The position numbers were made by a program, and so were the translations under genes. A DNA stretch of 64,000 nt from a virus. Where the stretch lies: positions 1 to 64,000 of IMG/VR virus record IMGVR_UViG_3300028581_000020; one strand, 5' to 3'. A model generated the notes under the pieces. That model was given only the letters and a program-made list of their open reading frames with translations, did no database searches and had not been told where the DNA came from. Below are positions 1-35,298 of the stretch, piece after piece (position 1 is the stretch's first letter; every line of letters starts with the position of its first letter).

Positions 1-489
1 GGACTTGATGCACCTAAGAAGTTCAATTGGTATTTGAGTCCTAATGAAGCTGTTTTGGCGGCTATGTGGTCCAAGGTGGGGTCCGAGGTGTGGTCCGAGG
101 TGTGGTCCGAGGTGGGGTCCAAGGTGTGGTCCAAGGTGGAGGCTGAAATTTGCTGGGGACAACACGATGCTGGATTTCTTTCAGAATATGCCTTCTATCT
201 GAAAGAATTGGGATTAAAAGAATGTGAACGATTGACTCCCCGTATGGAGCTTGCTAAAGAATGTGGATGGTTTATTCCTTATAAAGACGAAGTATTTATT
301 TCTGAGAAGCCTTGTGAAATTCATTTGAACCATAAAGGACAGCTTCATAATCCCGTAGGTCCCGCTCTATTGTATAAAAATGGTTATTGTCTGTATTCGA
401 TTGATGGAAATGTTCTAGATGATAAAGAAGGATTTAAAATTACTAAGTCAAATTTAATCAATTCGGAAGTGAAGGATTTATTAAAATGA
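1..489 (+). CDS. DUF6745-like protein, 5'-truncated by the window, carrying the C-terminal tag
   Basis: Frame is open from base 1 (GLDAPKKFNWYLSP...). WSEV-type repeats are followed by WGQHDAG...CGWFIPY...LHNPVGPAL, the pattern I recall for DUF6745. Ends KSNLINSEVKDLLK*. Confidence 0.7.
   Translation, partial: GLDAPKKFNWYLSPNEAVLAAMWSKVGSEVWSEVWSEVGSKVWSKVEAEICWGQHDAGFLSEYAFYLKELGLKECERLTPRMELAKECGWFIPYKDEVFISEKPCEIHLNHKGQLHNPVGPALLYKNGYCLYSIDGNVLDDKEGFKITKSNLINSEVKDLLK
67..138 (+). repeat. 12-bp tandem repeat x6, (T/G)GGTCC(A/G)AGGTG, encoding (W/G)S(K/E)V
   Basis: Read directly from the sequence. Confidence 0.95.
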
Positions 490-665
490 ACACAGAAATT
501 AAAAAGCCCGCACAACTCTTCATCATGGAAGCTTCCGCCACACGAAAACTTTTTGGTGAGGCGTCAGACGAAAAGAAACGCGCCCACGCCAAAAGAGTAA
601 TTGACTGGCATAAACAAGTTCGTTATAACAAACTTCGTCATCTCATTGAGAAACTTCGTGGATAA
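486..665 (+). CDS. Hypothetical basic protein, 59 aa (not in ORF track)
   Basis: MNTEIKKPAQ...IEKLRG*. ATGA overlap upstream and TAATG overlap downstream. Confidence 0.7.
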   Translation: MNTEIKKPAQLFIMEASATRKLFGEASDEKKRAHAKRVIDWHKQVRYNKLRHLIEKLRG

Positions 666-886
666 TGAAACATAAATTAGCACGCCGATATATTGACCAA
701 AACGGAAACGAGCGCTTGCTTGTATTTCATCGGGACTCTCCATATGGTCCCCAATGGCTAGACGAGCAAGGCGACGTTATTACCATTGATACCGTGAAAG
801 ACGTTAACGGAGGCTTGCATAATCCTTGGGATTTTGTTACTATCATAGAAGAATTCTATGTAACCCCGGAGGTATCGGACGAGTAA
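665..886 (+). CDS. Hypothetical protein
   Basis: ORF coupled to the upstream gene. Confidence 0.65.
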   Translation: MKHKLARRYIDQNGNERLLVFHRDSPYGPQWLDEQGDVITIDTVKDVNGGLHNPWDFVTIIEEFYVTPEVSDE

Positions 887-936
887 CGAATTATACAGAC
901 AATAAGCTTATAAATATTAATTAGAAAAGGAGTAAT

Positions 937-1119
937 ATGATCCTGCTTAAACTTGTTCATAACGATACAAATAAATCTGTAGGGAACGTTTTGAGAATTC
1001 GACAAGACGGAGATAAACGTTTGTTGGTTCTTGACAATGGGTCTGAATTGGAACTTAATGTTAAAAACCGCCTTATTTATCGTCTGGAAAAAATCAATAC
1101 CCGCGCTTTTGAAAACTGA
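937..1119 (+). CDS. Hypothetical protein
   Basis: AAGGAG SD upstream. Confidence 0.7.
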   Translation: MILLKLVHNDTNKSVGNVLRIRQDGDKRLLVLDNGSELELNVKNRLIYRLEKINTRAFEN

Positions 1120-1130
1120 TAGGACTAATA

Positions 1131-1379
1131 ATGGAAACTATCGAAGAACTTAAGAACCGAATACGAGAACTAGAAAAGCTTGTCTCCGAATTGTCACGAC
1201 AAGGACGTGAAATGTATTCAGACGAACAACTAAACCATGCCTCCGATAGATATGTACAAATGAATAATAGAAAAACTGCGGACCGGGAATCTTTTGTTGC
1301 CGGATTTGGATTTGGCGTTCCCGCAGGCGAGAAATGGGCATATCGACAAGGCTTTGAAGCTGGAAAAAATTCAAAATAA
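1131..1379 (+). CDS. Hypothetical protein with N-terminal coiled coil
   Basis: AGGA SD. IEELKNRIRELEKL heptads. Confidence 0.7.
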   Translation: METIEELKNRIRELEKLVSELSRQGREMYSDEQLNHASDRYVQMNNRKTADRESFVAGFGFGVPAGEKWAYRQGFEAGKNSK

Positions 1380-1381
1380 CA

Positions 1382-1409
1382 TTGTAATTTAAATTGTATT
1401 TGTTATAAT
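1382..1409 (+). promoter_or_regulatory. Sigma70-like promoter with extended -10, upstream of MoxR/vWA
   Basis: TTGTAA-N16-TATAAT with TGn, then AGGAG SD. Confidence 0.6.
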
Positions 1410-2578: not shown

Positions 2579-3984
2579 TGCCTAATACAAACGCAATGAC
2601 AGATAAGGGAGCGGGACTTGATCCCGTTCCCGTCCCTTCCGAAATTGTGCCGAAAAGGGAGCGCACCCCTCCTGACCTTAAACTCGCCAAAGAGAATATG
2701 GCGTGGGCAACTTCGACGGTTCTCAATGCGTCGGGATTTGGCTTTTATGGCTATATTCTGCAAGGTATGCCAACTCGGTTTACAACGGGACTTCCCACCG
2801 CTGGCGTTGCGTTCGATCCCCGCACTAAGCAATTTAACTTGTATGTCAATCCTTATTTCTGGAATGAATCTCTAGACAAGCTTCAGCGCGTTGCGGTTCT
2901 TATCCATGAAATGCTGCACGTAACCCACAAGCATGTTTATTATAATCTAAAGGGTCATCAAGAAAAGGACCGACTTAACATTGCCATGGATATGGTGATT
3001 AATCAGCAAATTTTGCATATGCCGAAAGAAGCCATCTTTGTCGAGAACTTCAAAGACAAAACCGGCAAACTTTTCCCCAAGAATCAAACTGTAGAAGTTT
3101 ATTACGATCTTTTGGAAAATGACGCTCAAGTCTTTCAACGCTCTCAGAATGGTCAAGGCGAAGGGGAAGGGAAAGACAAGCAAGAAACTAGCGGCCAAGG
3201 AATCCCTGGAGATGTTGAGCACAACGGACAAAGGGGAAAATGGAAACGTCTTGGCGATCTAAAAAAGGAATTGGGCTGGGATCAACATGAATGGGGTCTT
3301 GACTCTCAGGACAATCAAAGCCTTAAAGAAAAGCTCGAAGGACTTCAGGACTTGTTTAAGCGTGCGGAACATAAGGCATCGTTTGACCACTCTATAGATA
3401 AAAACGCTTTTGAAGACTTCCTTAAAGAAATTAAGTCCCGCATTCAAAAACTTGACGCACGCGGCATTTTGCTTAACGCCTTAAGAAAGTCCATGCCTTC
3501 GAAGTTCGTTAAGAAATCTTGGTGGAGAGAATCTAGCCGTTATGGCGACGATGCTCCGGGAAGTCTCAGAGCCCCAATGCCCAAAATTGCTGTACTTGTT
3601 GACACTTCAGGCTCTATGAGCATCGAAGAAATTAACGAATTCTTTGCTGTAACGAATCAATTCATGACGGTAGGCATTGACAAAGCGTTCCTTGGACTTT
3701 TCCATACCGATATGTATTATGACACGATTGTCAAGAAAAACTTCCAGCTTGCCAAAACTAACATTCGGGATAAAGTACAAGGCGGCGGGACTGAATTGAC
3801 GACAGCCTTTGAATGGGCAAAGAAAAAGAATCCGGATATGATTATTGTATTGACAGACGGATATTGGTCTATGCCGAATATCAACGTTAAGAAGCTGCCT
3901 GAATGCTGTTTTGTCATCTCGAAACAAGGAACAACGGATCATCCCATGAAGGGTAGTGGACGAACGGTGAAATATGACCCGTGA
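2578..3984 (+). CDS. HExxH metallopeptidase-like plus vWA domain protein (DUF2201-type)
   Basis: LIHEMLHV, NIAMDMVIN, MIDAS DTSGS, GGGT, VLTDG. Confidence 0.85.
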   Translation: MPNTNAMTDKGAGLDPVPVPSEIVPKRERTPPDLKLAKENMAWATSTVLNASGFGFYGYILQGMPTRFTTGLPTAGVAFDPRTKQFNLYVNPYFWNESLDKLQRVAVLIHEMLHVTHKHVYYNLKGHQEKDRLNIAMDMVINQQILHMPKEAIFVENFKDKTGKLFPKNQTVEVYYDLLENDAQVFQRSQNGQGEGEGKDKQETSGQGIPGDVEHNGQRGKWKRLGDLKKELGWDQHEWGLDSQDNQSLKEKLEGLQDLFKRAEHKASFDHSIDKNAFEDFLKEIKSRIQKLDARGILLNALRKSMPSKFVKKSWWRESSRYGDDAPGSLRAPMPKIAVLVDTSGSMSIEEINEFFAVTNQFMTVGIDKAFLGLFHTDMYYDTIVKKNFQLAKTNIRDKVQGGGTELTTAFEWAKKKNPDMIIVLTDGYWSMPNINVKKLPECCFVISKQGTTDHPMKGSGRTVKYDP

Positions 3985-4186
3985 TAGGTATTTTCGATTT
4001 ACAAAAGGCCCAAATAGAGGTTCTATTGTATATAAATTAACCGCCGAAGGTTTGTATTATAAAAAAACTGATACCTTGGTCTGGAGAGAATCTGCGGCAT
4101 CGGTAGAACAAATGGAATCCACACTAATGACCGAAGTCACAAAAGAGTATGAAGTACAAAACGAAATTAAGGAGTTGCTTAAATGA
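3974..4186 (+). CDS. Small tagged protein
   Basis: Ends KEYEVQNEIKELLK*. Confidence 0.85.
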   Translation: MTRDRYFRFTKGPNRGSIVYKLTAEGLYYKKTDTLVWRESAASVEQMESTLMTEVTKEYEVQNEIKELLK

Positions 4187-4278
4187 TTAAGATTAAAGTC
4201 CTACAATTTCTTGGAGAAATTCTTAACAATGGAATTTTCTATGCAATGATCGCCATTGCTGTGAGGGTTTTTGTATGA
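4183..4278 (+). CDS. 31-aa hydrophobic peptide (not in ORF track)
   Basis: MIKIKVLQFLGEILNNGIFYAMIAIAVRVFV*, with ATGA overlaps at both ends. Confidence 0.6.
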   Translation: MIKIKVLQFLGEILNNGIFYAMIAIAVRVFV

Positions 4279-4490
4279 AAGTGCAATTTGATTTTGAATT
4301 GATTAATGGAAATACCGTCTATGTCACGGCAAAAAAGAAAGGCGAAGAGGAATTTGACTTGCGCCTTCAGGATGACAATGGGGTCGAAATCCCTTTGACG
4401 CAAATTGATGAAGACGAACTCGATTCTATGAAAGAAAAAGCCGAAGAAGAGATCTTCTTTAAGACGCAGGAATTGGATTTTAGGGATTAG
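4275..4490 (+). CDS. Small acidic hypothetical protein
   Basis: D/E-rich ORF, coupled. Confidence 0.7.
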   Translation: MKVQFDFELINGNTVYVTAKKKGEEEFDLRLQDDNGVEIPLTQIDEDELDSMKEKAEEEIFFKTQELDFRD

Positions 4491-4492
4491 AA

Positions 4493-4717
4493 ATGGACAT
4501 TGGCATTGTTGAAGGTGAATGGTATATGAACCGCGAGACAAAAAACTGCTATAAGGTACTGCATTGGCCTGGATTTTATAGCATGTCTTTCCCTGTATCC
4601 ACCGATGGCAAAAATATAATCACATATAAAACATCTCTTATAAGGAATTGGGTCCACCTTCCTAATTACGAAAAGACCTTGACAATACAATCGGAAGTTA
4701 ATAAGCTATTGGAATGA
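4493..4717 (+). CDS. Small tagged protein (HLPNY subtype)
   Basis: Ends HLPNYEKTLTIQSEVNKLLE*. Confidence 0.85.
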   Translation: MDIGIVEGEWYMNRETKNCYKVLHWPGFYSMSFPVSTDGKNIITYKTSLIRNWVHLPNYEKTLTIQSEVNKLLE

Positions 4718-4932
4718 GAGATATTGCGGTCTTTAAAGACATTGATAGAGAAAACCCCTGGACATGGGTGTATCAAAAAGGAGAACTTGTGGAGGTATTT
4801 TCAAATACAGACCGATATCCTGCCGATACTAAAATGTGGCCATATGATAAAATGCGGGAGTATTCGGGTTTTATTAAAGATATAACAAAAGAATATCTTA
4901 TTGACAAAGAACTGAAGGACCTATTAAAATGA
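4714..4932 (+). CDS. Small tagged protein
   Basis: Ends KEYLIDKELKDLLK*. Confidence 0.85.
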   Translation: MRDIAVFKDIDRENPWTWVYQKGELVEVFSNTDRYPADTKMWPYDKMREYSGFIKDITKEYLIDKELKDLLK

Positions 4933-5144
4933 AAGTACAAGCTGGGCAAGTCTGGCTTTGGAAAAGATTTGATCTTTCGGGAGTAAAATGTCGTATTCTA
5001 GAAATTAGAAATCAAACTACAGTTATTGAAAATTGCGAATTAAAAACTAAACACATAATTTTTACAAATTATCTTGCTGATAAATGTTGGGAACTATCAA
5101 AATCGTCTGAAATTAAAGACGAAATAGAGGATCTATTGGCATGA
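4929..5144 (+). CDS. Small tagged protein
   Basis: Ends KSSEIKDEIEDLLA*. Confidence 0.85.
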   Translation: MKVQAGQVWLWKRFDLSGVKCRILEIRNQTTVIENCELKTKHIIFTNYLADKCWELSKSSEIKDEIEDLLA

Positions 5145-5380
5145 AGTTCTATAAAGGAATGATTTTACGAGGAAAAGGCCCTTATAAACACCTCACGTTT
5201 AAATTGCTTAATATAGAAAAACAAACCTGGAGAGTTTTAGAGGACAATCGAGAATGCGGATCGAGAAACGGGAAAACTGAGGTTTATAGCGTCTCAGAAA
5301 TCGAATGGGGAGACAATCAATGGGAAGTTATTACAAAATCCTTCGAGACTAGTAAAGAATTGAAGGATATTCTAAAATGA
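5141..5380 (+). CDS. Small tagged protein (paralog of 28277)
   Basis: MKFYKGMIL... and ends KSFETSKELKDILK*. Confidence 0.85.
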   Translation: MKFYKGMILRGKGPYKHLTFKLLNIEKQTWRVLEDNRECGSRNGKTEVYSVSEIEWGDNQWEVITKSFETSKELKDILK

Positions 5381-5832
5381 ATCTTCCTAAAGCAATTTGT
5401 GTTGATATTGATGGCACAATCGCGAATATTGACCATCGTCTTCACCACGTCCGAAGAAAGCCAAAGAACTGGCCGGAATTCTTTAAGGAAATGTCAAAGG
5501 ATTCTGTAAACGAATGGTGTCAAAATTTAGTTTATTTGTATTTCAATGCCGGTTATAAGATTATCTTTGTATCCGGACGCGGCGAGGAATATCGCCGCGC
5601 AACAGAAACTTGGCTTGACGAAAAAGCACAAGTATATCATACTGCCTATGAGCTTTACATGCGTCCAGAAAAAGACTATAGGCAAGACGACATAATTAAG
5701 GAAGAAATCTACTTGACGAAAATCAAAGATAAGTATAATGTTGAAGTTGTAATTGATGATCGGCCACGGGTTTGTCGCAAATGGCGGGAGTTGGGACTTC
5801 TAGTCCTTCAATGCAATGACAAAGAATTTTAA
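5377..5832 (+). CDS. HAD-family phosphatase, like the Pnkp/PseT 3'-phosphatase domain
   Basis: DIDGT, VSGR, LYMR, IDDR motifs. Confidence 0.85.
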   Translation: MNLPKAICVDIDGTIANIDHRLHHVRRKPKNWPEFFKEMSKDSVNEWCQNLVYLYFNAGYKIIFVSGRGEEYRRATETWLDEKAQVYHTAYELYMRPEKDYRQDDIIKEEIYLTKIKDKYNVEVVIDDRPRVCRKWRELGLLVLQCNDKEF

Positions 5833-6013
5833 GTACTATCGAGAATCTTATGGTCACGTTTATAAATACGACGGCGATAATTTGATCGCCGTAAAGCCAA
5901 TGGGCAAAGAATGGAGAGATCCACATCTTCCATTAAATGTAGTGGACTATGATTGGGAAGATGTCACAAAAGAATACCAAATTCAACAAGAAGTCAAGGA
6001 TTTATTGAAATGA
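5816..6013 (+). CDS. Small tagged protein
   Basis: Ends KEYQIQQEVKDLLK*. Confidence 0.85.
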   Translation: MTKNFKYYRESYGHVYKYDGDNLIAVKPMGKEWRDPHLPLNVVDYDWEDVTKEYQIQQEVKDLLK

Positions 6014-6231
6014 ATTATCGCTATTTTTTATCTCTAGATCCTAATACTATCATTAGACGCCATTCGGATTTGTCGGGAATGGAAATGCGGCTATATCATG
6101 ACAAAAACGACGAATGGAGGCCTTCACAGTTAGATATTAAATACATAGAAGCTATGATAAGGTGCGGATCAATGAAAGACGCGACAAAAGAATTGGAAGT
6201 CCTTGACGAAATCAAGGATATTTTGTCATGA
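6010..6231 (+). CDS. Small tagged protein
   Basis: Start moved to the ATGA overlap. Ends KELEVLDEIKDILS*. Confidence 0.8.
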   Translation: MNYRYFLSLDPNTIIRRHSDLSGMEMRLYHDKNDEWRPSQLDIKYIEAMIRCGSMKDATKELEVLDEIKDILS

Positions 6232-6440
6232 AGCTGAAAGTTGGCGAATATTATAGGTCAATAGGCGCTCACTACGTATTTAGGGTTGATAGTTTCGATA
6301 GAAATCAAGATTATTTTGTTCAATTCGAAACAGATGGCAGATTCGAAAAATGGAAAGATGGTTTAAATGATTACGAACATCTTCCCAATTACAAAAAATC
6401 AATAGAAATAAAGGATGAACTCGATAAGCTTTTGGCTTGA
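6228..6440 (+). CDS. Small tagged protein (HLPNY subtype)
   Basis: MKLKVGEYY... and ends KSIEIKDELDKLLA*. Confidence 0.85.
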   Translation: MKLKVGEYYRSIGAHYVFRVDSFDRNQDYFVQFETDGRFEKWKDGLNDYEHLPNYKKSIEIKDELDKLLA

Positions 6441-6464: not shown

Positions 6465-6482
6465 TACTATGTGGAGGAAACT

Positions 6483-6740: not shown

Positions 6741-6970
6741 AGAAAGTCCGGCTTGGGCAGATTTTTAAGGCCAAAGAGGGATCTATATATTACGGCGCAA
6801 CTTGGAAATGCATTAATGTCAGAAATGGAAAATTCCAAGAGATGTCAAATCCTAAAGATTGTATCGAAGATCCAGTTCACAGCTTTATCAGAGATTGGGA
6901 AGAAAGCGATTGGATTGACGTGACGAAAGAATATGAAGTTAATGAAGAAGTTAAGGATTTGTTGAAATGA
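6737..6970 (+). CDS. Small tagged protein
   Basis: Ends KEYEVNEEVKDLLK*. Confidence 0.85.
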   Translation: MKKVRLGQIFKAKEGSIYYGATWKCINVRNGKFQEMSNPKDCIEDPVHSFIRDWEESDWIDVTKEYEVNEEVKDLLK

Positions 6971-7002
6971 CTTCATTAACATTCAGTCGAGCTTTGCAAT
7001 GA
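6967..7002 (+). other. 11-codon relay micro-ORF MTSLTFSRALQ
   Basis: ATGA overlaps at both ends. Near-twin at 26079. Confidence 0.6.
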
Positions 7003-7653: not shown

Positions 7654-7657
7654 TCCC

Positions 7658-7933
7658 ATGACACTTATTCAATTCTTTATTGGTCTTTTTGTCTTTATAT
7701 TTGGATATTTGTATTTCCAATCTGTTCTTAAAGACCTTCGCAAAAACGTAATGCCTGGCGATGTTGTTGGTATTCGTTTTGGCGATTATGTCGTCAATAG
7801 AAAAATTCGTGCTATCTCCGGAACGACAGTTGATGTTTTAAGCCTCAAAGGCAATAATGTAATTACTGTTGACAAATCCAATATCTATGTTTGGGATAAA
7901 TTTGCCATTGAGGATGAGAAAATTGATGTCTGA
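7658..7933 (+). CDS. Single-TM protein with YajC-like architecture
   Basis: N-terminal TM, then PGDVV...IRAISGTTVDV...ITVDKSNI. Confidence 0.45.
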   Translation: MTLIQFFIGLFVFIFGYLYFQSVLKDLRKNVMPGDVVGIRFGDYVVNRKIRAISGTTVDVLSLKGNNVITVDKSNIYVWDKFAIEDEKIDV

Positions 7934-7988
7934 TTTGATTTATAAATTTGCAGAAATACAAAAAGAAGTAAAGGATTTACTATCATGA
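7926..7988 (+). CDS. 20-aa tag-only micropeptide (not in ORF track)
   Basis: MSDLIYKFAEIQKEVKDLLS*. ATGA overlap with nrdA. Confidence 0.7.
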   Translation: MSDLIYKFAEIQKEVKDLLS

Positions 7989-9712: not shown

Positions 9713-9787
9713 TTTCCCTATCAATATATTACTACCAGAATCAAATCTTTAGAAATATCCCAAGAATTACAGGACATATTGAAATGA
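9713..9787 (+). pseudogene. Orphan tag remnant in frame behind the nrdA stop
   Basis: FPYQYITTRIKSLEISQELQDILK*, with no ATG/GTG/TTG ahead of the tag. Confidence 0.65.
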
Positions 9788-10032
9788 AATATAAAGTTGG
9801 AGATGTTTTTTATGCAAAATGGCCAAAATATGGTCATGTTTGGAAAATTGAAGTAATTGGTAAAAGAGGAAGATCTAACGCCACGATAGTAGATCCCGCA
9901 AAAACTGATTGGAAGCTCGGTGAAACTATTAAAAATTCCAACGCTAAACTATTTTCTATCGACGAAGGGTGGATTCATATCCCAGCTAAAGAATTTGACG
10001 TTTTAGACGAAGTGAAAGATCTTCTCGCGTGA
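9784..10032 (+). CDS. Small tagged protein
   Basis: MKYKVGDVF... and ends KEFDVLDEVKDLLA*. Confidence 0.85.
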   Translation: MKYKVGDVFYAKWPKYGHVWKIEVIGKRGRSNATIVDPAKTDWKLGETIKNSNAKLFSIDEGWIHIPAKEFDVLDEVKDLLA

Positions 10033-10280
10033 TTTTAAAACGTGGCCATGTTGAAGTTGGTCGGACGTATAAATATGTCGGCTCTCGTTATGGTTTTGAT
10101 ACGGTCGAAGTGACGAGAATACTATTAAAAGACGATATTGTCGGAAATTATAAATACGGGGAAGTAATTTGGCGAGATTTGTCGCTAAGCTTTTATGATC
10201 CCCTAGATGATTTAAAAGATCTTGTTGACATCACAAAAGAGATTGAGGTAAACTCTGAGGTGAAGGATTTATTGAAGTGA
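10029..10280 (+). CDS. Small tagged protein (paralog of 25822)
   Basis: Ends KEIEVNSEVKDLLK*. Confidence 0.85.
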   Translation: MILKRGHVEVGRTYKYVGSRYGFDTVEVTRILLKDDIVGNYKYGEVIWRDLSLSFYDPLDDLKDLVDITKEIEVNSEVKDLLK

Positions 10281-10531
10281 CTAAACCCGAAATTGGAAGA
10301 TTATATCAATGGCAACCAGACGTAAGAAATACAGCAGACATTGCCAAAGAAAATAAAGACAGAGTATTCAAATTCACTAAAGTCGGACCAAAACTATGGG
10401 CATATGAGTATTTAGATGAAAACTATTCTTTTGAATACGATATGGAAGATTATCCAGATAGATTTGATTATTTAATTGACGTGACAAAAGAAATTGAAAT
10501 ACAAGACGAAGTGAAAGAGCTACTTAAATGA
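10277..10531 (+). CDS. Small tagged protein
   Basis: Ends KEIEIQDEVKELLK*. Confidence 0.85.
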   Translation: MTKPEIGRLYQWQPDVRNTADIAKENKDRVFKFTKVGPKLWAYEYLDENYSFEYDMEDYPDRFDYLIDVTKEIEIQDEVKELLK

Positions 10532-12738
10532 GCACATTCAAAGTTCCCGTCACAACTATTCGTGAAGTATTCGTGCATCCAAATGCCGATTTGCTTGAAA
10601 TTGTCAAGGTGTACGATTGGAATGTGGTCGTTTCTAAAGGTAAATATAAAGCTGGAGATAAAGTCGTTTATGTTCCAGTTGACAGTATTCTTCCCCTAGA
10701 TTTAGAAGAAAAGATCTTTCCCGTAGGATCGAAGGTAAAGCTTAAGAACCATAGAATTCGAACAATCAAACTTCGTAAAGCTATTTCCCAAGGAATGATT
10801 CTTGCTATGGAATTTCTTCCTGAGGCAAATTATAAAGAAGAACAGGACGTATCGACAATCCTCGGCATTACAAAATACGAAGAGCAGGAACTCCCCGAGA
10901 GCATGAAATTGAAGGGCGCAAAATCCAAGAAGAAGGGAAATCCCAACTTCAAGAAATATACAGATATTGAGAATTTCAAATATTATGACCGAGTTTTCCA
11001 AGATGGGGAACTGGTTTATATTTCGGAGAAGCTGCATGGATGTCTAAGAAATAATACGAAAATCACGTTGACAAACGGAGATACTAAAACTATTCAAGAC
11101 ATCGTTGATAATAAACTGGAAGTTGAAGTTTGGGGAATTGATAACGATTCTCAAAAACTTATTCCGACTAAAGTTGTCAATTGGTTTAATAACGGAATTT
11201 CACACGACTGGCTAAATATTCGAATGACACGAAGTCGAATGGGCCGGGGAAATAGTTTTGCGGCAATTGACGTTACCCCAAATCATCAATTCTATAATCC
11301 AAATACAAAGCAATATGTCGCTGCCGGGAATCTCAAAGTCGGCGATTCTGTTTTGTATTATCGAAATGATAGACAAGTTAGCTACGTTCAAGAACAAATC
11401 CTTATTGGAAAAATGTTAGGGGACGCATCTTATAATAAAAGTACCAATATTGTCACCTTTGGCCAGAAAGAACTTCACGAAGATTATCTTGACGAGACTT
11501 TAAAAAATCTAGGAGATGTCGGTGGAAACCGAAGCAAAAATCAACAATCCGGATACGGAACGACAATGTGTCGCGGCAATACTAACTCGCTATTAAAATT
11601 CAATGACCTATTTTTGGATTGGATTTCGGGAACACAAAAGGTTGTTCCGGCGTCCATTGCCAATAAATTAGGACCAATCGCCCTAGCATATTGGTATATG
11701 GATGACGGCTCTTTGTCGTCTGTCGAAGGTCAAGAAGACAGGGCCGCGTTTGCTACTTGCGGCTTTGATGAAGCCTCTATTGATAATTTGGTTACTGGAC
11801 TTAATAATGTTGGAATTTCTCCTATCAAATATCAAGCCGATGGATATTGGAGATTACGATTAAATGCAGACGAAGCTGAAAAACTTTTTGTCTTGATTTC
11901 TCCATATGTGGTCCCTTGTATGCGCTATAAATTGCCAGAAAGATATAGAAATTGCACAGTCACAGATGTTATTCAAAAAAGTTCGCAGTATAAGCCTAAG
12001 CTTGTCGAACAAAAAATTATTGGGATTACCCCTATCCAAAACCATAAATCTAAAAATAACACTAGATACGATATAGAAACCGAATGTCACAATTTCATAG
12101 CCGATGGGGTTGTTGTTCATAACTCGTCCTTCCGCGCTGGTTGGTTTAAAAATGCTCCCGACACACTCTGGAAGAAAATCCTATTCCTATTTGGCGCTCT
12201 TCCAGAATGGGAATTCTGTTGGGGATCGCGAAATGTGCAAATTCAAAGCAAGCTGTTAAAAAAACATTCCGGGGCAAAGATCGAATCCCAAGGCGTCGAT
12301 TTTGGCGATGTTTATACAAAGATGGTCGATCAATATTCTCTTCGTGAAAACATTCCTAAAGGCTTTTCTGTATATGGTGAAATTGTCGGGCCTGGAATTC
12401 AACGTAATTATGCATATGGATGCGCAAATGGCGAACATAAGCTCTTTGTATACGACATTATGGACGAGCATGGGAAATGGCTTGACTATCCTAGATTCAA
12501 GCGCTGTGTGGCAAATTGGGGCTTAGAGAGGGTCCCTGAGTTGTATGTAGGTCCTTTCTCTAAATCTGTTGTCGAAGAACATCGGGAAGGGGATTCGACC
12601 ATTGGCGGACAAAAAGTCCGGGAAGGCGTCGTTGTTAAACCTCTGGTTGAACGACAAACGCCCTCTCTCGGTCGCCTTGTATTGAAAGCCATTTCCGAGG
12701 CTTATTATCTCAATAAAGATAATACAGAATTCCACTAA
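10528..12738 (+). CDS. ATP-dependent RNA ligase (Rnl2/DRB0094-like, N-terminal OB domain) interrupted by an intein
   Basis: HPNADLLE OB-fold start, motif I SEKLHG, GSRN, YGEIVG, REGVVVK, LKAIS. Confidence 0.85.
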   Translation: MSTFKVPVTTIREVFVHPNADLLEIVKVYDWNVVVSKGKYKAGDKVVYVPVDSILPLDLEEKIFPVGSKVKLKNHRIRTIKLRKAISQGMILAMEFLPEANYKEEQDVSTILGITKYEEQELPESMKLKGAKSKKKGNPNFKKYTDIENFKYYDRVFQDGELVYISEKLHGCLRNNTKITLTNGDTKTIQDIVDNKLEVEVWGIDNDSQKLIPTKVVNWFNNGISHDWLNIRMTRSRMGRGNSFAAIDVTPNHQFYNPNTKQYVAAGNLKVGDSVLYYRNDRQVSYVQEQILIGKMLGDASYNKSTNIVTFGQKELHEDYLDETLKNLGDVGGNRSKNQQSGYGTTMCRGNTNSLLKFNDLFLDWISGTQKVVPASIANKLGPIALAYWYMDDGSLSSVEGQEDRAAFATCGFDEASIDNLVTGLNNVGISPIKYQADGYWRLRLNADEAEKLFVLISPYVVPCMRYKLPERYRNCTVTDVIQKSSQYKPKLVEQKIIGITPIQNHKSKNNTRYDIETECHNFIADGVVVHNSSFRAGWFKNAPDTLWKKILFLFGALPEWEFCWGSRNVQIQSKLLKKHSGAKIESQGVDFGDVYTKMVDQYSLRENIPKGFSVYGEIVGPGIQRNYAYGCANGEHKLFVYDIMDEHGKWLDYPRFKRCVANWGLERVPELYVGPFSKSVVEEHREGDSTIGGQKVREGVVVKPLVERQTPSLGRLVLKAISEAYYLNKDNTEFH
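11041..12123 (+). mobile_element. Intein (361 aa) with LAGLIDADG homing endonuclease
   Basis: Starts CLRNNT, block B VTPNHQF, LIGKMLGDA and LAYWYMDDG, ends YDIETECHNFIADGVVVHN followed by Ser+1. Confidence 0.92.
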
Positions 12739-12950
12739 TGTCGCTTATTACACGGGAATATTATAAGTGTCTTTGTGGCTGTAAAGACATTTGTGAAGTT
12801 TTACAAATAGAAGACCCAAACTACTTTATTCGATAGGATCGAACTAAGATTATAGAACTTTGGTATGCTGGATCTGATTGTTTTGAACATCTCCCCAACT
12901 ACAAAAAATCAAAAGTCATTGACAAAGAGTTAAAAAAGCTGTTAGAATAG
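12738..12950 (+). pseudogene. Tagged small gene with an internal TAG at 12834-12836
   Basis: MSLITREYYKCLCGC...YFIR*DRTK...HLPNYKKSKVIDKELKKLLE*. Confidence 0.75.
12919..12948 (+). promoter_or_regulatory. Sigma70-like promoter inside tag-coding DNA
   Basis: TTGACA-N18-TAGAAT with TGn. Next ATG at 12957. Confidence 0.6.
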
Positions 12951-12956
12951 ATTCAA

Positions 12957-13196
12957 ATGATCGAAGTTGGGCAAGTTCGTGAGTGGATTTTAGGCTCTGG
13001 TATAAACGCCAATACTAACCACCATTTAGGACCATTTAAAATCACAGCAATATCCAATGATCGAGTATATTATACCTATATAAATTTTCTTATAGAAAGA
13101 ACAGATTTGTATAGGCCAGCATCAGAACTTGAAGCCGAATCTGGTATTTGTAAATCATACATTATTAATCAAGAAGTAAAGGATCTATTATTTTGA
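12957..13196 (+). CDS. Small tagged protein
   Basis: Ends KSYIINQEVKDLLF*. Confidence 0.85.
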   Translation: MIEVGQVREWILGSGINANTNHHLGPFKITAISNDRVYYTYINFLIERTDLYRPASELEAESGICKSYIINQEVKDLLF

Positions 13197-14940: not shown

Positions 14941-14941
14941 T

Positions 14942-25459: not shown

Positions 25460-25825
25460 GTGAAAATGATGATTATCGAATGGTTTGTTGTTTTATTGGC
25501 GTTTGTTGTTTATTTATTCATTGGATTTATTGTAAGCCGCTGGCATATTAAAAGTCTTATTATTAATCAGTTTAAAAAACTTGAAAATATAAACGAGAGG
25601 CGAGAATTTAAAAAATGGACAGCAATTAAGGTTGATACTGAGTTAGATGACGCACTAACGCCAGTTCGAATTGTAATTTGGCCATTCTATGTGGTGTGTC
25701 AATTATTTTTTTGGGTTCCTGCTGTCATTAAATTTTTCGATAATATGTTAGTTGATAATATTCAAAAGAATCTACATATTAAAGAAGATGAGGTTCAAGA
25801 AGAAGTCAAGGGGCTTTTGAAATGA
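25460..25825 (+). CDS. Tagged membrane protein (2 TM)
   Basis: Hydrophobic segments. Ends KEDEVQEEVKGLLK*. Confidence 0.8.
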   Translation: MKMMIIEWFVVLLAFVVYLFIGFIVSRWHIKSLIINQFKKLENINERREFKKWTAIKVDTELDDALTPVRIVIWPFYVVCQLFFWVPAVIKFFDNMLVDNIQKNLHIKEDEVQEEVKGLLK

Positions 25826-26082
25826 AGCAAAGAAAGCACATAGTAGTTGGTGGAAGGTATTTAAACACGGGTATCTTCGATGATGGTTATTTTTTTCATC
25901 ATGTCGAAGTTGAAGGGTTTTCTGGTAATGTCATCATTGGTAAATATTATTACGGTGATTCATTAAAGAATTCTTCATTTACAAACGTAACGCACTTAGA
26001 CTTTAATGATGAAGATCTTGATGCTCTCGTTTCCATGAAAGCTTTAGAAATTGATATTGAAGTGAAGGATCTTCTAAAATGA
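25822..26082 (+). CDS. Small tagged protein
   Basis: Ends KALEIDIEVKDLLK*. Confidence 0.85.
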   Translation: MKQRKHIVVGGRYLNTGIFDDGYFFHHVEVEGFSGNVIIGKYYYGDSLKNSSFTNVTHLDFNDEDLDALVSMKALEIDIEVKDLLK

Positions 26083-26114
26083 TTTCACTAACGTTCAATC
26101 GAGCTTCGCAATGA
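26079..26114 (+). other. 11-codon relay micro-ORF MISLTFNRASQ
   Basis: ATGA overlaps at both ends. Near-twin of 6967-7002. Confidence 0.6.
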
Positions 26115-28517: not shown

Positions 28518-29471
28518 ATGTTCCGAGACAATCTCCCAAAACCCGGCAATACAACAAAGATCAACGTCTTAATAACAGACGGCGGTCTTGGAGATCTTGC
28601 TTGTTCCCTCGTTCCCGTAAAATACATGCTCGATAATATGTTCTGGTTGAATCCTCAAATCTTTGTACCTGATTATTTATTTGACTTCGCAAAGAACGTC
28701 TTACCTTCAAAGGCAAAAATCTTCCGCTATTCCGAAGCCTCTCGTTATTATAAGGAAAAACTCCCGGCTGTATCCACGCAATGGAAAACCAACCATACGG
28801 CAATGCGTACACATCCGGTCGATTATGCATTCCACATGCTCCTTGACAAAACTCCAACGCCAGAGGAACGGAATTACCTCAAGGTGTCGCCGGTTGATAT
28901 TTCCGTTTTCAATCTCCCGACAAAATACGTCTGCATTGGAGTCGGACACACAAACCGCACTAAGGAATTCAAACCCGATGTTGTTAATGGAATTGTGACT
29001 TATTGTCTCTCCATGGGATACCTTCCCGTATTCCTTGGAAAAAAGGAAGAGCCCACAGGACATGAGAAACTCGGCTTAAAGGCTGAGATTTCTAATGACA
29101 TTGATTATACGAAAGGCCTTGATTTTACTGGGAAAACGACCATTTTGGAAGCCGCGAGTATTATCAACGGAGCGAAATGTTATATTGGAATGGACGGCGG
29201 ACTTGTTCATATCGCAGGATTTACAGATGTTCCGATCATCGCTGGTTATACGTTTGTGAACCCTAACCATATTATGCCTATTCGTAATGATATTCTAGGT
29301 CACAACGTACAAAATATAGTCCCGCCCCCATCATTAGGGTGTCGATTTTGTCAAACAAATTGGTCTATGTTTTATGACCATTCGTTCTTTGATTGTTATT
29401 ACGATGATTTTGAATGTGTTAAACAATTGACTCTTGACAAATGGATAGAAAAGCTGGAGAATGTATTATGA
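28518..29471 (+). CDS. GT9 (heptosyltransferase-like) glycosyltransferase
   Basis: GGLGD, DFTGKTTI, IGMDGGLVHIA, CRFC. Confidence 0.8.
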   Translation: MFRDNLPKPGNTTKINVLITDGGLGDLACSLVPVKYMLDNMFWLNPQIFVPDYLFDFAKNVLPSKAKIFRYSEASRYYKEKLPAVSTQWKTNHTAMRTHPVDYAFHMLLDKTPTPEERNYLKVSPVDISVFNLPTKYVCIGVGHTNRTKEFKPDVVNGIVTYCLSMGYLPVFLGKKEEPTGHEKLGLKAEISNDIDYTKGLDFTGKTTILEAASIINGAKCYIGMDGGLVHIAGFTDVPIIAGYTFVNPNHIMPIRNDILGHNVQNIVPPPSLGCRFCQTNWSMFYDHSFFDCYYDDFECVKQLTLDKWIEKLENVL

Positions 29472-29827
29472 TTGATTTTTTAAAAGGTATTTTTGGTATC
29501 TCTGCAAATAGTCAACAAATCCAGTCCTTACAATCGGGTGCTATTGCACGACAACAACTGGGCTCTCAAGGAACCAAAAGTAAGTTTTCTGTATATACGA
29601 CACCAGGTTCCGAAACATTCTTTCCATATTCACAAGGAAGTATTTATTATGATCCAGAACGTCTTTTGCCGCTTCATCAAAGAAAAAGGGTGTCTCTTCT
29701 AAAGCTTCAACGCCGAGCGGCAGAAGTCTCCTCTCTTATTACTGAAAAACAGGACGATCTTATTAAATTAAACGCTCGAATTAAAGAAATTTCTATTCAA
29801 GAAGAGCTTAAAGACCTATTGAAATGA
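29468..29827 (+). CDS. Tagged coiled-coil protein
   Basis: Ends KEISIQEELKDLLK*. Confidence 0.8.
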   Translation: MIDFLKGIFGISANSQQIQSLQSGAIARQQLGSQGTKSKFSVYTTPGSETFFPYSQGSIYYDPERLLPLHQRKRVSLLKLQRRAAEVSSLITEKQDDLIKLNARIKEISIQEELKDLLK

Positions 29828-30090
29828 CCTTCACAAAAGGACACGTTTATTACTCTAATTGTAATACCTATGGTATTGCGTGGGAATGTTTAGAATCAAC
29901 GATAGTCGCCCACGTACGGTGTCAGGCCGTAGAGTTTACTGGAAATGTTCCCGATCATATTACAGTTAGACTATTTGACCCACAGACAATCGTATTTGGC
30001 CTGCATACAGACCACATGAAAAATATTACGGAATACGCATCAAAAAAAGCCTGGGAAACTAGAAACGAAGTGAAAGATCTACTTGCTTGA
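29824..30090 (+). CDS. Small tagged protein
   Basis: Ends KAWETRNEVKDLLA*. Confidence 0.85.
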   Translation: MTFTKGHVYYSNCNTYGIAWECLESTIVAHVRCQAVEFTGNVPDHITVRLFDPQTIVFGLHTDHMKNITEYASKKAWETRNEVKDLLA

Positions 30091-30293
30091 AATTTAAACT
30101 TGGTGATCTTATTAGCCCTAAAAATATGTCGGTAGTCTATAAAGTAATGTCAATTGATCCTGTCATGAACAAAATAAAATTACTGACTCCAGATCTCAGA
30201 ATACTTACGCTTTATAATGATAATACAGAAGAACACTTTGAAATTGCTAAAGAACAAGTTGTTTCTGATGAAGTGAAGGATCTTTTAAAATGA
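30087..30293 (+). CDS. Small tagged protein
   Basis: MKFKLGDL... and ends KEQVVSDEVKDLLK*. Confidence 0.85.
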   Translation: MKFKLGDLISPKNMSVVYKVMSIDPVMNKIKLLTPDLRILTLYNDNTEEHFEIAKEQVVSDEVKDLLK

Positions 30294-30493
30294 TTGTAAA
30301 TTATAAAACATACGGACAATTGGTATCAGTATTCAAAGGAACATATGAAGCTCCATGGAAAACCGAGACAGACGTTTCCCGGCTTTTTGAATATAGAAAC
30401 ATGCCGGGGATGTCAACGGAAAATACCGAGTTCATTGACAAACGAATTAAGGAATTAGAAACGTCACAAGAAGTGAAGGAACTATTGAAGTGA
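30290..30493 (+). CDS. Small tagged protein (paralog of 30490)
   Basis: Ends KRIKELETSQEVKELLK*. Confidence 0.85.
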   Translation: MIVNYKTYGQLVSVFKGTYEAPWKTETDVSRLFEYRNMPGMSTENTEFIDKRIKELETSQEVKELLK

Positions 30494-30702
30494 GCATTAC
30501 TTATATGCTTAAGGCTACATACGGTAATCTTATAAATCTAATTCCGGAAGGCGTTTATTTATTCTCCATTGAAAGAGAAACCTCATTAGAAAAACTTAAT
30601 AATATGTTAACAAATGAACGCTCTGAAGATATTTTAGATCGCGTTCGTAAAAGAATCAAACACATTGAAACCCAACAAGAAGTGAAGGATTTACTCGCTT
30701 GA
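30490..30702 (+). CDS. Small tagged protein
   Basis: Ends KRIKHIETQQEVKDLLA*. Confidence 0.85.
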   Translation: MSITYMLKATYGNLINLIPEGVYLFSIERETSLEKLNNMLTNERSEDILDRVRKRIKHIETQQEVKDLLA

Positions 30703-32432: not shown

Positions 32433-32637
32433 AATAGGGCAATTGATTGAGAGTTCTGCGCATCCCGGTAATATTACTCTAGATAAAATAATTACGGACA
32501 TTAAAGAAGAAATTTATATTTGTAAAAATGTAGTAAATGGTGCTCAATTGTACCTTCCTTTTAGTTTTGTCGATAACCGTTACACTTTACATAAATCTTG
32601 CCAAATTGAAGAAGAAGTGAAGGATTTATTGAAATGA
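32419..32637 (+). CDS. Small tagged protein
   Basis: MGKFKIGQL... and ends KSCQIEEEVKDLLK*. Confidence 0.85.
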   Translation: MGKFKIGQLIESSAHPGNITLDKIITDIKEEIYICKNVVNGAQLYLPFSFVDNRYTLHKSCQIEEEVKDLLK

Positions 32638-32858
32638 GCTTTAGAGTGGAAATTGGGATGGTATTTCGAGTTCCGCAAGGACTCCAAAGCAGCGGTCCCT
32701 GGCACTTCGAATACCTAGGCAACGGTAACTTTAAAAATCTAGAAATTAATAAAATTATTAGCTATGATCCAGACCATTCTTTGTGGGAATCTTATTATGT
32801 TCCAAACTATAAAAAAACTAAGGAGATTAAAGATGAAATTTCTACTCTTCTGTCTTAG
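32634..32858 (+). CDS. Small tagged protein (PNY subtype)
   Basis: Ends VPNYKKTKEIKDEISTLLS*. Confidence 0.8.
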   Translation: MSFRVEIGMVFRVPQGLQSSGPWHFEYLGNGNFKNLEINKIISYDPDHSLWESYYVPNYKKTKEIKDEISTLLS

Positions 32859-33255
32859 CCTTTTACCTATTGCCGCACATGCTTGGGGAGAAGTTGATGG
32901 TTATCTAGAAGCTCGCAAATATTTTAATGCAAATTATCCTGGTCATTTTGATGCCACAGGAGATCCACAATTATACGGCGTAGATTTCCAATTTAACTTT
33001 CGGCTTGTTCCCAAATATTTTACACTAATTGCCGGAGCCAGGTCTAATGGTAATGCCCACGGCTTCTCTCAAGCAGCCGGACGGGCTGGTATTGAAACGC
33101 ATTGGAAAATGCCCTTTGGTGGTCCGCGCATTGACGTTGGAGTTATGCACGAATCGCAACATAATTTTGAATATGAACAAGGCCTGAACGTTCCCTATCG
33201 CTTCTATACGGGAGAATGGCTGTATGTCCGATACAATTTTGGAAATAAGCCGTAA
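32833..33255 (+). CDS. Putative small outer-membrane beta-barrel protein
   Basis: Signal peptide (AHA), alternating beta strands, LYVRYNF near the C-end. AGGAG SD. Confidence 0.6.
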   Translation: MKFLLFCLSLLPIAAHAWGEVDGYLEARKYFNANYPGHFDATGDPQLYGVDFQFNFRLVPKYFTLIAGARSNGNAHGFSQAAGRAGIETHWKMPFGGPRIDVGVMHESQHNFEYEQGLNVPYRFYTGEWLYVRYNFGNKP

Positions 33256-33257
33256 TT

Positions 33258-33509
33258 ATGATGCAAGTTATTACCGTATATAACGGAACGGTTCTAAAAA
33301 ATAAAAATACCGGGACGAAGTGGACCTTTGTTATTGAACCTAATGAGATGTATTGGCTTCGGAATGGGACACATAAATATCCAGTAAACAGCGATGAAGT
33401 TACAAAACGTGAAAATTCCGATCAATACGAGGCGTCAATTCCTGATTTTTTTATCGACATTACAAAAAGCAATGAAATTGAAAAAGAAGTGAAAGACTTG
33501 TTGTCTTGA
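33258..33509 (+). CDS. Small tagged protein
   Basis: Ends KSNEIEKEVKDLLS*. Confidence 0.85.
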   Translation: MMQVITVYNGTVLKNKNTGTKWTFVIEPNEMYWLRNGTHKYPVNSDEVTKRENSDQYEASIPDFFIDITKSNEIEKEVKDLLS

Positions 33510-33718
33510 AATCAGCGGATAAAATTGTAGCGGTCAACGATTCCAAAGGTATAACGTATTATGCCTTTAATTTTGACAGTCAAATGTATTGTGCTTATTT
33601 TATGGACTCTGTAAATTTCTATTCCTTTCATAGCGGCTGGCTTCCTATAAATGACGAGGCCCGGAGAATTCTTAAACAACACGAAGTTAATGCTGAGATC
33701 AAGAGTCTATTAAAATGA
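33506..33718 (+). CDS. Small tagged protein
   Basis: Ends KQHEVNAEIKSLLK*. Confidence 0.85.
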   Translation: MKSADKIVAVNDSKGITYYAFNFDSQMYCAYFMDSVNFYSFHSGWLPINDEARRILKQHEVNAEIKSLLK

Positions 33719-33963
33719 AATTTAAAGTCGGTGAATACTACGAAATAACCGAAGACATGCAGGGACACGCAGTATGCCACAAACGCGGCTCGGTTTTTAA
33801 AGTTATGGAATCAACTTCAGAAATTGATAGATTCGTAATCAGATTTATTGATGGAGAAAAAACAACCGGGCCTTGGTATGACGGAATGTCTTGCTATAAG
33901 CACCGCCCAGAACTAAAAAAGGGCGACCAAGTAAAAGAAGAACTTGACAATCTACTAGCGTGA
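33715..33963 (+). CDS. Small tagged protein (paralog of 6228)
   Basis: MKFKVGEYY... and ends KGDQVKEELDNLLA*. Confidence 0.85.
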   Translation: MKFKVGEYYEITEDMQGHAVCHKRGSVFKVMESTSEIDRFVIRFIDGEKTTGPWYDGMSCYKHRPELKKGDQVKEELDNLLA

Positions 33964-33972
33964 TGATAATAT
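33944..33972 (+). promoter_or_regulatory. Sigma70-like promoter starting inside tag-coding DNA
   Basis: TTGACA-N17-TAATAT with TGn. ATG at 33981 has no SD. Confidence 0.6.
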
Positions 33973-33980
33973 AGTTCTAT

Positions 33981-35045
33981 ATGAAATTAGCATTTGATGA
34001 CGTTCTTATTAGTCCCGGATTTTCCCATATCAACTCCCGTAAAGACGTTGACCTTTCCTCCAACCTCGGAAGCTTGGGATTGAAACTCCCAGTAATCTCG
34101 GCTCCGATGGATACTGTAACGGGACCTGCGATGGCAAACGCCCTATCCAAGGTTGGCGCTGCCGCAGCCCTTCATCGCTTTCAAAGTATTGATGATAATT
34201 TGAAGCAGTTTAAAGCTTGTGAAGGAAAAGTCATTGTTTCTGTAGGCTTGAACGATTGGGAACGAACCAGCGCTCTTTATGATGCTGGTGCTGAATATTT
34301 CCTATTAGACATTGCTCATGGAGCGCAAATGCAGGTTGTAGATTGGGTATCTGCCTTTCGGCAGAAGTATTCTGGAGTATGGCTAATGGTTGGGAATTTT
34401 GCTAATGCGAATCAAATCCACACATTTATGACACATACAAATAAAGTAGATAGTTGGAGGATAGGAGTGGGCTCAGGATCGAGTTGCGAAACAAGAGTTA
34501 AGACCGGATGTGGTTTGCCGACTCTTTCAAGCCTTCTCTCCATCAAAGATTATAATTCATCAAATTGGAAGCATCAAATCGAGAATATTGTTGCTGATGG
34601 CGGAATTAAGAATCCTGGGGACGTTGCAAAGTCCTTGGCCGCAGGAGCTTCTGCTGTAATGGTCGGAAAACTTCTTGCTGGAACTGATGAAAGTCCTGGT
34701 GAAATTACAGAAGTCGGAGGATGGTTTGCTCGACCTGATAAATACGCCGTCGAGAAAGAAACCCGAGTTGACGGCATTAAAGTGAAACAATATAGAGGCT
34801 CGGCTTCCGCCGAAAGCTATAAAGATCAAGGAAAAATCCAAGGCTATATTACGACAGAAGGAGTGTCCTTCACAATTCCGTATAAAGGCCCAGTATCTTC
34901 TGTGTTAACCGACATTGAAGGTGGCCTTCGTTCTGCCCTCACCTACGCGGGCGTTTCGAACCTGAAGGATTTTAGACAGTCTGCTGAGCTTGTACAGATT
35001 ACGAATGCCGGAGCTTTAGAAAGCAAAGCACATGGCAAAATTTGA
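33981..35045 (+). CDS. guaB: IMP dehydrogenase / GMP reductase family protein, no CBS domains
   Basis: FDDVL, SAPMDTV, DIAHG, GVGSGSSCETR, ADGGI, YRGSAS. IMPDH versus GMPR is not resolved. Confidence 0.8.
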   Translation: MKLAFDDVLISPGFSHINSRKDVDLSSNLGSLGLKLPVISAPMDTVTGPAMANALSKVGAAAALHRFQSIDDNLKQFKACEGKVIVSVGLNDWERTSALYDAGAEYFLLDIAHGAQMQVVDWVSAFRQKYSGVWLMVGNFANANQIHTFMTHTNKVDSWRIGVGSGSSCETRVKTGCGLPTLSSLLSIKDYNSSNWKHQIENIVADGGIKNPGDVAKSLAAGASAVMVGKLLAGTDESPGEITEVGGWFARPDKYAVEKETRVDGIKVKQYRGSASAESYKDQGKIQGYITTEGVSFTIPYKGPVSSVLTDIEGGLRSALTYAGVSNLKDFRQSAELVQITNAGALESKAHGKI

Positions 35046-35298
35046 GGTAGGACAGCAATATAGGTTTTCTCCAAAAGGAGTTTATAATCTCACGTTTGAA
35101 GTTTTATCTAAAACTGATGATGGTAGTTATAAATGTATTACGTTGACATTTGAAGCTACTGGAGCGACGCCTACGCCGACTGAAATAGCCGTTCCCGGAA
35201 AAACCTGGACATTTACACCGACTTCTTATATTGAAGAAATTTCAACATCACTAAAAGCCGAAGAAGTAATGGCAGAAATAAAAGAGCTTCTGTCATGA
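35032..35298 (+). CDS. Small tagged protein (last member)
   Basis: MAKFEVGQQY... and ends KAEEVMAEIKELLS*. Confidence 0.85.
   Translation: MAKFEVGQQYRFSPKGVYNLTFEVLSKTDDGSYKCITLTFEATGATPTPTEIAVPGKTWTFTPTSYIEEISTSLKAEEVMAEIKELLS

Follow-up and report, generated by a model that had tools for sequence, protein, structure and literature searches.

What is gained when many genes of one phage end in the same short peptide, and do the codons of that peptide serve the protein or the gene that follows? The window analyzed here is the first 64 kb (64,000 nucleotides) of a 104.5-kb IMG/VR virus record (IMGVR_UViG_3300028581_000020) from an uncultured phage, and identical sequence is present in lake-water metagenomes. 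From position 1 to about 44 kb all genes lie on the + strand and are tightly packed. This early region is made up of tightly packed polycistronic units, in which most starts fall on or beside the preceding stop codon. When all stop-terminated frames are translated, a shared C-terminal tail is evident, K-x3-[IV]-x2-E-[VIL]-K-[DE]-L-L-x-stop, which forms a 14-residue helix at the end of small early genes and is hereafter called the tag. It was originally predicted that the DNA of the tag doubles as a translational coupling unit, carrying the Shine-Dalgarno (SD) sequence and the start codon of the next gene. Our results make it likely that the tag is a repeated instance of ordinary translational coupling, with the codons of the helix spelling the SD of the next gene.

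Using a position-specific score for the 15 residues that precede each stop, applied to all six frames of the entire record, we have identified exactly 40 copies of the tag, one fewer than the 41 counted before. Each copy scores at least 22.6 bits, and the next best candidate scores -2.9 bits. All copies are on the + strand between 445 and 35298, with tag ends running from 489 to 35298. The tag is never internal to a protein (0/40); it is always followed by one residue and then the stop, and its length is exact in 40/40. The stop is TGA in 33 copies, TAG in four and TAA in three, and the base before TGA is A, G or T in all 33 cases (NTGA), so the earlier figure of 32 NTGA overlaps among 41 copies becomes 33 among 40. 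With A, G or T as the final base before TGA, an ATG, GTG or TTG start would result. We assigned downstream genes from a gene chain built by dynamic programming. A real downstream gene starts directly at the NTGA in 28 of the 33 copies, three copies (tag ends 4186, 6970 and 26082) open a short bridging open reading frame (ORF), and two (tag ends 6440 and 33963) lead nowhere. One further copy, with tag end 32076, has the TAATG overlap noted previously. Counting as coupled all copies joined to the next gene directly, via a bridging ORF, by TAATG or across a 1-nt gap, there are 33 coupled and seven uncoupled copies. Direct starts inside a tag are seen for at least 10 unrelated genes downstream. 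Pfam matches agree with the original prediction for all five enzymes that it placed there, namely a PNKP-type HAD phosphatase, NrdA, RNA ligase, NrdB and an exonuclease that matches the PD-(D/E)XK nucleases; the start of a dCMP deaminase gene at 32076 likewise lies inside a tag. The Pfam match of NrdB begins at residue 9 counted from its TTG start at 13193. The N-terminal motif of the tagged family, M-K-F-K-V-G, begins exactly at overlapped starts, one TTG start included, which supports the start calls.

The codons of the tag differ from those of gene interiors at the Lys-Asp pair. With residues numbered back from the stop, Lys -5 is AAG in 22 of the 33 copies that have Lys at this site, against 33.5% among all interior Lys codons. 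Before GAN the fraction is 20/30, compared with 37/164 (22.6%) in gene interiors (P = 4×10−6) and 1/24 within the bodies of tagged genes; the low interior values suggest that SD-like strings are normally avoided. Coupled copies have AAG and AAA at -5 in a ratio of 22:7, and uncoupled ones have 0:4 (P = 0.008). The enrichment of AAG that the original prediction leads one to expect is therefore found relative to both genome-wide and context-matched Lys, and it follows coupling status. The four copies that had been singled out as uncoupled and written with AAA, in the tagged genes that start at 7444, 12738, 16709 and 19553 and end at 7653, 12950, 17197 and 19795, do all use AAA. Where about 25 copies of AAG-GA type had been estimated, AGGA, GGAG or GAGG in codons -7 to -3 is present in 23 of the 33 coupled copies and in none of the seven uncoupled ones. 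Coupled copies with a residue other than Lys at -5 retain the purine run (GAG-GAT, GGA-GAA, CAG-GAC), whereas the corresponding substitutions in uncoupled copies lose it.

Pairing with the anti-SD, an assumed 16S rRNA tail in a short or a long model, shows the same dependence. We redrew synonymous codons at -7 to -2 from the phage's own usage in 400 trials. The NTGA copies pair better than 400/400 of the resamples (z = -3.7 with the short and -4.9 with the long anti-SD), and the seven non-TGA copies pair no better than resampled codons (z ~0). An SD of -4.5 kcal/mol or better is found in 28 of the 33 coupled copies versus one of the seven uncoupled copies (P = 7×10−4). The AAGGA of the tags lies at -14 to -10 from the downstream start; AAG at Lys -5 together with the GA of the following Asp or Glu would form this string, with GGA at -12 to -10. 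The spacing between helix and stop is constant, so that synonymous choice among the helix codons can write the ribosome-binding site of the gene downstream. Geometry, codon bias and the dependence of this bias on coupling status are all seen at these junctions, and ribosomes finishing a tagged gene would restart there (termination-reinitiation) or initiate afresh at the SD in the tag.

We then sought to address whether this arrangement is particular to the tag. The median SD duplex is -5.4 kcal/mol for tagged junctions, -5.5 for untagged overlaps, -5.6 for free-standing genes, whose SDs read AAAGGAG, and -1.8 for gene interiors. Untagged overlaps of -4 or -1 carry GGAG at about -12 to -9, a position matching that in the tags, and untagged coupled junctions show equal synonymous optimization (z = -4.3 to -5.3). 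As untagged overlaps follow the same rule, the tag is best described as repeated ordinary translational coupling and not as a dedicated device: the SD and start of the next gene do reside in tag codons, as proposed, but a tag-specific unit is not supported. NTGA is found after 27 of 36 tagged genes versus 15 of 60 untagged genes (P = 2×10−6), and among genes under 130 amino acids after 25/33 tagged versus 8/28 untagged (P = 3×10−4). Most of this difference comes from junctions between a tag and another tagged gene (18/19). Ahead of unrelated genes NTGA is only marginally above the untagged background (10/21 versus 15/60, P = 0.06), so that the excess belongs mainly to the tandem paralog array. 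Because the gene bodies are saturated with change, these junctions must have been kept by selection, and the excess fits a tandemly iterated paralog unit maintained in this way.

Several observations weigh against coupling through the tag. AAA is used by seven of the coupled copies, and a convincing SD is missing in four or five coupled copies (tag ends 4717, 29827, 33718, 35298 and, weakly, 9787). One feature of the codon bias can be explained only under the long ...CCUCCUUUCU tail for the anti-SD of the host: of the 22 copies with Val -6, 14 have GTG where 2.0 are expected (P ~ 1×10−17), compared with 6/49 for interior Val before Lys (P = 2×10−5). The long-tail model further predicts that GTA should be as good as GTG beside AAG, yet GTA is rare there. 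No RNA run is listed among the datasets containing the phage sequence. Predicted RNA structure does not mask the SD; the SD and start regions are unpaired with a probability of 0.51 versus 0.46 at random interior sites, which leaves independent initiation and true coupling inseparable.

The bias at -6 extends to Ile, which is ATA in 4/10 copies (0.9 expected), and a purine-ending codon at this site (GTG or ATA) would extend the pairing or provide an alternative register. GAAAG within GTG-AAA-GA would pair with the long anti-SD tail at -4.9 kcal/mol, and the other Val codons reach about -1.5. Among AAA copies with Val -6, six of seven have GTG. GTG beside AAA fits a compensation for the missing AAG, a reading that depends on the model of the host 16S tail. 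Thr -15 is ACA in 11 of 13 copies, for which SD pairing gives no explanation; extended anti-SD pairing explains only part of the bias at -6 and -15.

It could be argued that the overlaps only save space, the SD in the tag serving for translation of each downstream gene on its own. The predicted structure leaves de novo initiation unobstructed, the SDs are as strong as those of free-standing genes, and among 14 overlapping pairs tested by experiment one was uncoupled (PMC6728339). The other 13, however, were strictly coupled, the contribution of the SD being variable (PMC6728339), and TTG and GTG starts, that of NrdB included, are weak for de novo initiation. The bridging ORFs at 6967-7002, 26079-26114 and 4183-4278 also find their most natural explanation in a need for an unbroken ribosome relay, and taken together these points make independent translation unlikely. 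The genes after the two 11-codon mini-ORFs have almost no SD (-2.2 kcal/mol). The 28-nt spacers of these mini-ORFs are alike in DNA, and such a spacer could be a leader peptide or an operator. The hydrophobic 31-codon ORF at 4183-4278 may encode a small membrane peptide.

Some uncoupled copies raise the possibility of a further role. The tags ending at 7653, 12950, 17197 and 33963 contain TTGACA-17/18-TAnnnT with TG upstream of the -10, as judged by a consensus scan for sites of sigma-70 type. All of these promoter-like sites stop 6 to 8 nt short of an ATG without SD (duplex ~0), a spacing predicted to be the geometry of leaderless mRNA. The TTGACA of the -35 derives from Ile-Asp-Lys, and CTG at Leu -3 is found only in the copies ending at 7653, 12950 and 17197. 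A promoter-like site is thus present in three of the four uncoupled AAA copies, and the fourth, ending at 19795, is followed by AAGGAG within a 10-nt gap. A similar promoter-like site is found at 19518-19546 ahead of the ATG at 19553. The tail might accordingly be a three-way dual-coding junction, encoding a helix together with either SD and restart (33 copies) or a sigma-70-type promoter for leaderless mRNA (four copies), in which the -35 would come from Ile-Asp-Lys and the extended -10 from CTG-Leu-x-stop. We consider this doubtful. If it were true, the tag-only mini-ORFs would be retained adaptors wiring long enzyme genes into the ribosome relay, and the paralog family would double as the scaffold of the early expression program of the phage.

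Four tags lack a normal gene body (7926-7988, 9713-9787, the copy with a TAG at 12834-12836, and 31993-32076), which suggests fast birth and death in the tag family. The ORF 7926-7988 is out of frame with a 91-amino-acid ORF at 7658-7933, and its ATG overlaps the stop of that ORF by 8 nt; the ATG of 31993-32076 overlaps the upstream stop by 8 nt as well. The ATGA of the orphan tag at 9713-9787 gives a start at 9784 (MKYKVG...). The three decayed copies that precede a start (7926-7988, 9713-9787 and 31993-32076) keep both AGGA and the overlap, as expected if deletions removing the ribosome-binding site of the next gene were selected against. Assembly error was rejected as the source of the frameshift, the nonsense codon and the orphan tag, as contigs from other lake samples are identical at all three; this comparison covered 4000-13900, and 31993-32076 lies outside it. 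An alternative genetic code for the TAG at 12834 was also rejected, given that open frames of at least 100 codons, read with the standard code, already take up 87% of the record.

These body-less copies bear on the proposal that the tag is in the first place a module of nucleic acid, which as a portable junction carries SD and overlapping start or a promoter and spreads as a plug-in with the peptide secondary; along these lines the tag could be pictured as a "self-wiring cassette" insertable ahead of any gene without polarity. Two tag-only ORFs (7926-7988 and 31993-32076) and the orphan lie precisely at the junction of a long gene with the start that follows. The substitutions at -5/-4, which hold the purine run in coupled copies only, point the same way, as do the promoter-like sites in four uncoupled copies, the range of unrelated genes that start inside a tag and its exact length. 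However, the body-less copies can equally well be decayed family members, with one frameshift, one nonsense codon and two deletions, and the marginal NTGA frequency ahead of unrelated genes does not favor a plug-in.

In the peptide itself, K-14, E-7 and L-2 are invariant, and the hydrophobic positions keep a helical period. As the original prediction allowed, an SD role is unable to explain K-14 and E-7, which serve no SD, and the same applies to L-2 and the periodicity. Uncoupled copies keep K-D, spelled AAA-GAY, with those ending at 32858 and 33963 lacking the pair. An AlphaFold2 model of the 79-amino-acid protein at 28277-28516, computed with 28 paralogs as alignment (mean pLDDT 92), shows a five-strand barrel and, after it, a confident helix formed by the tag (residues 65-78). 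The peptide has been maintained while synonymous sites have reached saturation. A primary nucleic-acid module is thus rather improbable. The invariant residues and the retention of K-D as AAA-GAY indicate that the peptide is conserved in its own right, with the SD as an overlay, and most tagged genes form one fast-diverging family with a small beta-barrel followed by the tag helix.

The matches from a Foldseek search of the PDB were all weak, KOW/SH3-like and no better than E = 0.06, Pfam and PHROGs scans of the tagged proteins gave no match, and an ESM Atlas search of them gave no usable lead. One tagged protein searched against a big protein database matched only itself. The tag profile run against 1.84 billion proteins found only the phage's own proteins and one repeat protein, and a degenerate tag DNA pattern had nine single matches in IMG/VR, about chance level. 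A related metagenomic phage (L018 and L020) was found via its DNA polymerase, which is about 52% identical. It encodes small M-A-K-F-K-V-G-D proteins with a variant tail, ...QFNEDLKELL[KS] and also ...QFN[EK]DLKE[LI]L; one copy has two extra residues after LL. In these tails AAG-GA(A/G) is used in 3/3 copies, and an ATGA or TTGA overlap is seen in 2/3, one of them onto the helicase gene. Twenty other polymerase relatives have no such tail.

Synonymous identity between tag copies is at background for -13 to -8, -3 and -2, as is same-codon sharing at Leu -3/-2, Glu -11/-13 and Ile/Val -10, so the deviations at -5 and -6 are position-specific; the bodies of tagged genes show no BLAST match to each other except for a few pairs. 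Although tag-to-tag junctions are NTGA in all but one case, many neighbors are paralogs, some tag DNAs share at least 85% identity along about 36 nt and contigs of a 32.6-kb locus cross-matched 5977-6013, it is very improbable that the AAG, GTG and NTGA pattern was inherited through recent shared DNA ancestry or gene conversion, because the other synonymous sites of the tag do not exceed background, as shared descent would require, the choice of AAG or AAA tracks coupling status, and unrelated untagged coupled junctions are equally optimized.

Ordinary translational coupling, written repeatedly into one helix, has several implications. The phage offers a natural experiment in which one peptide is written 40 times, 33 times with a downstream start and seven times without, and which isolates synonymous selection for the ribosome-binding site of a neighbor, free of amino-acid effects. 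For annotation, TTG and GTG starts concealed in NTGA, such as that of NrdB, probably belong to the expression chain, as do ORFs as short as 11 to 31 codons. Any account of what the peptide does must allow for the K-D pair of the tail being more than a protein feature.

Features of the tag-bearing region and of the related phage (positions in the window unless another sequence is named)
Feature	Position	Strand	Remarks
Tag copy (TKSNLINSEVKDLLK)	445..489	+	AAG-GAT; ATGA overlaps start at 486
MoxR-like AAA+ gene (AAA_5) and DUF2201 metallopeptidase/VWA gene	1433-3984	+	Head of densest tag array
Densest array, nine tagged genes	3974..6440	+	ATGA-joined; listed ends 4186, 4717, 4932, 5144, 5380, 6013, 6231, 6440
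Bridging ORF, 31 codons, hydrophobic (MIKIKVLQFLGEILNNGIFYAMIAIAVRVFV)	4183..4278	+	From ATGA of tag 4186 to ATGA on gene 4275
PNKP-type HAD phosphatase	5377-5832	+	Start inside tag ending 5380
Bridging mini-ORF, 11 codons, MTSLTFSRALQ	6967..7002	+	Tag 6970 to 86-aa gene at 6999; ATGA at both ends
Promoter-like site in tag ending 7653	7622-7651	+	Ahead of ATG 7658
Tag-only ORF, 20 codons	7926..7988	+	AAG-GAT; ATGA gives NrdA start 7985
NrdA	start 7985	+	Pfam; ATGA of tag-only ORF 7926..7988
Orphan tag without start codon	9713..9787	+	In frame directly after NrdA TAA; CAG-GAC (AGGA)
Three tagged genes in series	9784..10531	+	Ends 10032, 10280, 10531; GTGA, GTGA, ATGA
Intein-bearing RNA ligase	start 10528	+	Pfam; start from ATGA of tag ending 10531
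Tagged gene with in-frame TAG at 12834-12836	12738..12950	+	AAA; uncoupled
Promoter-like site in tag ending 12950	12919-12948	+	TTGACA-18-TAGAAT; ahead of ATG 12957
Tagged gene	12957..13196	+	AAG-GAT, TTGA; supplies NrdB TTG start at 13193
Tagged genes	14145..15382	+	Ends 14375, 14653, 15382
PD-(D/E)XK nuclease	start 15379	+	ATGA of tag ending 15382; GGA-GAA spells GGAG
Coupled, then uncoupled copy	16485..17197	+	Ends 16712 (AAG-GAT) and 17197 (AAA-GAT)
Promoter-like site in tag ending 17197	17166-17195	+	TTGACA-18-TAGCAT; ahead of ATG 17203
Two tags, then mini-ORF 26079-26114	25460..26114	+	Tag ends 25825, 26082; leads to family B DNA polymerase, start 26111
Bridging mini-ORF, 11 codons, MISLTFNRASQ	26079-26114	+	Tag 26082 to family B DNA polymerase; ATGA at both ends
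Five tagged genes	29468..30702	+	Unbroken NTGA series; ends 29827, 30090, 30293, 30493, 30702
Tag-only ORF, 27 codons	31993..32076	+	AAG-GAC; TAATG gives dCMP deaminase start 32076
Last tagged genes	32443..35298	+	Ends 32637, 32858, 33509, 33718, 33963, 35298
Promoter-like site in tag ending 33963	33944-33972	+	TTGACA-17-TAATAT; ahead of ATG 33981
Variant-tail genes of the related phage	L018 157-393, 3131-3373, 5276-5506; L020 2135-2380, 4283-4513		Near DNA polymerase, just before helicase

The MoxR-like and DUF2201 genes are joined to the densest tag array via TAATG and -11 overlaps, and no gap above 2 nt is found among the ORFs from 1433 to 6440. The RNA ligase gene (10528-12738) contains an intein with a LAGLIDADG endonuclease, as matched by Pfam. 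Contigs from other samples diverge from this gene at 10660/10901 and 12087/12126, and could be other alleles or unrelated intein homologs. Searches of phage collections with the DNA of NrdB and RNA ligase found no match to either, and a helicase search found only distant matches (<30% identity) in these collections and no relative in IMG/VR; by these searches no cultured phage is a close relative. A scan of the window against Rfam gave no family at threshold. The GC content at 62001-64000 is 0.51, up from about 0.40.

The mechanism is textbook translational coupling. Gene pairs that overlap and have the SD within the upstream member occur widely, and most of them show strict coupling (Huber et al. 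2019, PMC6728339); translational coupling by termination-reinitiation has been reviewed (PMC12548453). Like the pairs of Huber and colleagues, those in this phage are co-directional, overlap by -4 or -1 and carry the SD in the last upstream codons at about -12 to -9, with SD use at overlaps equal to that at leading genes. Unlike them, about 30 upstream genes here end in one peptide and place the SD repeatedly in Lys-Asp (AAG-GAY), so that coupling is seen 30-fold in one genome; the seven uncoupled copies serve as an internal control, and coupling is read here from sequence. Eyre-Walker, in J Mol Evol in 1996, reportedly found that the SD of a downstream gene limits synonymous choice near the 3′ end of the gene before it. 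In both cases a synonymous bias at gene ends is explained by the ribosome-binding site of the neighbor, whereas in the tag the bias is position-specific within a repeated motif, with AAG at 67% versus 4% to 23% in context-matched interiors. SDs and short spacers have also been described (PMC2784483). In the synthetic synTCE elements the ribosome-binding site is hidden in a hairpin of at least 6 bp, which blocks de novo initiation (PMC11602170). The 11-codon ORFs at 6967-7002 and 26079-26114 have synTCE-like overlaps and almost no SD. The bicistronic design of Mutalik et al. in 2013 is said to use a leader cistron. As in synTCE and the bicistronic design, the ORFs 7926-7988 and 31993-32076 fully hold the next ribosome-binding site and an overlapping stop and start. 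Unlike synTCE, the junctions of this phage have no predicted masking hairpin, and these natural elements also encode a conserved protein helix.

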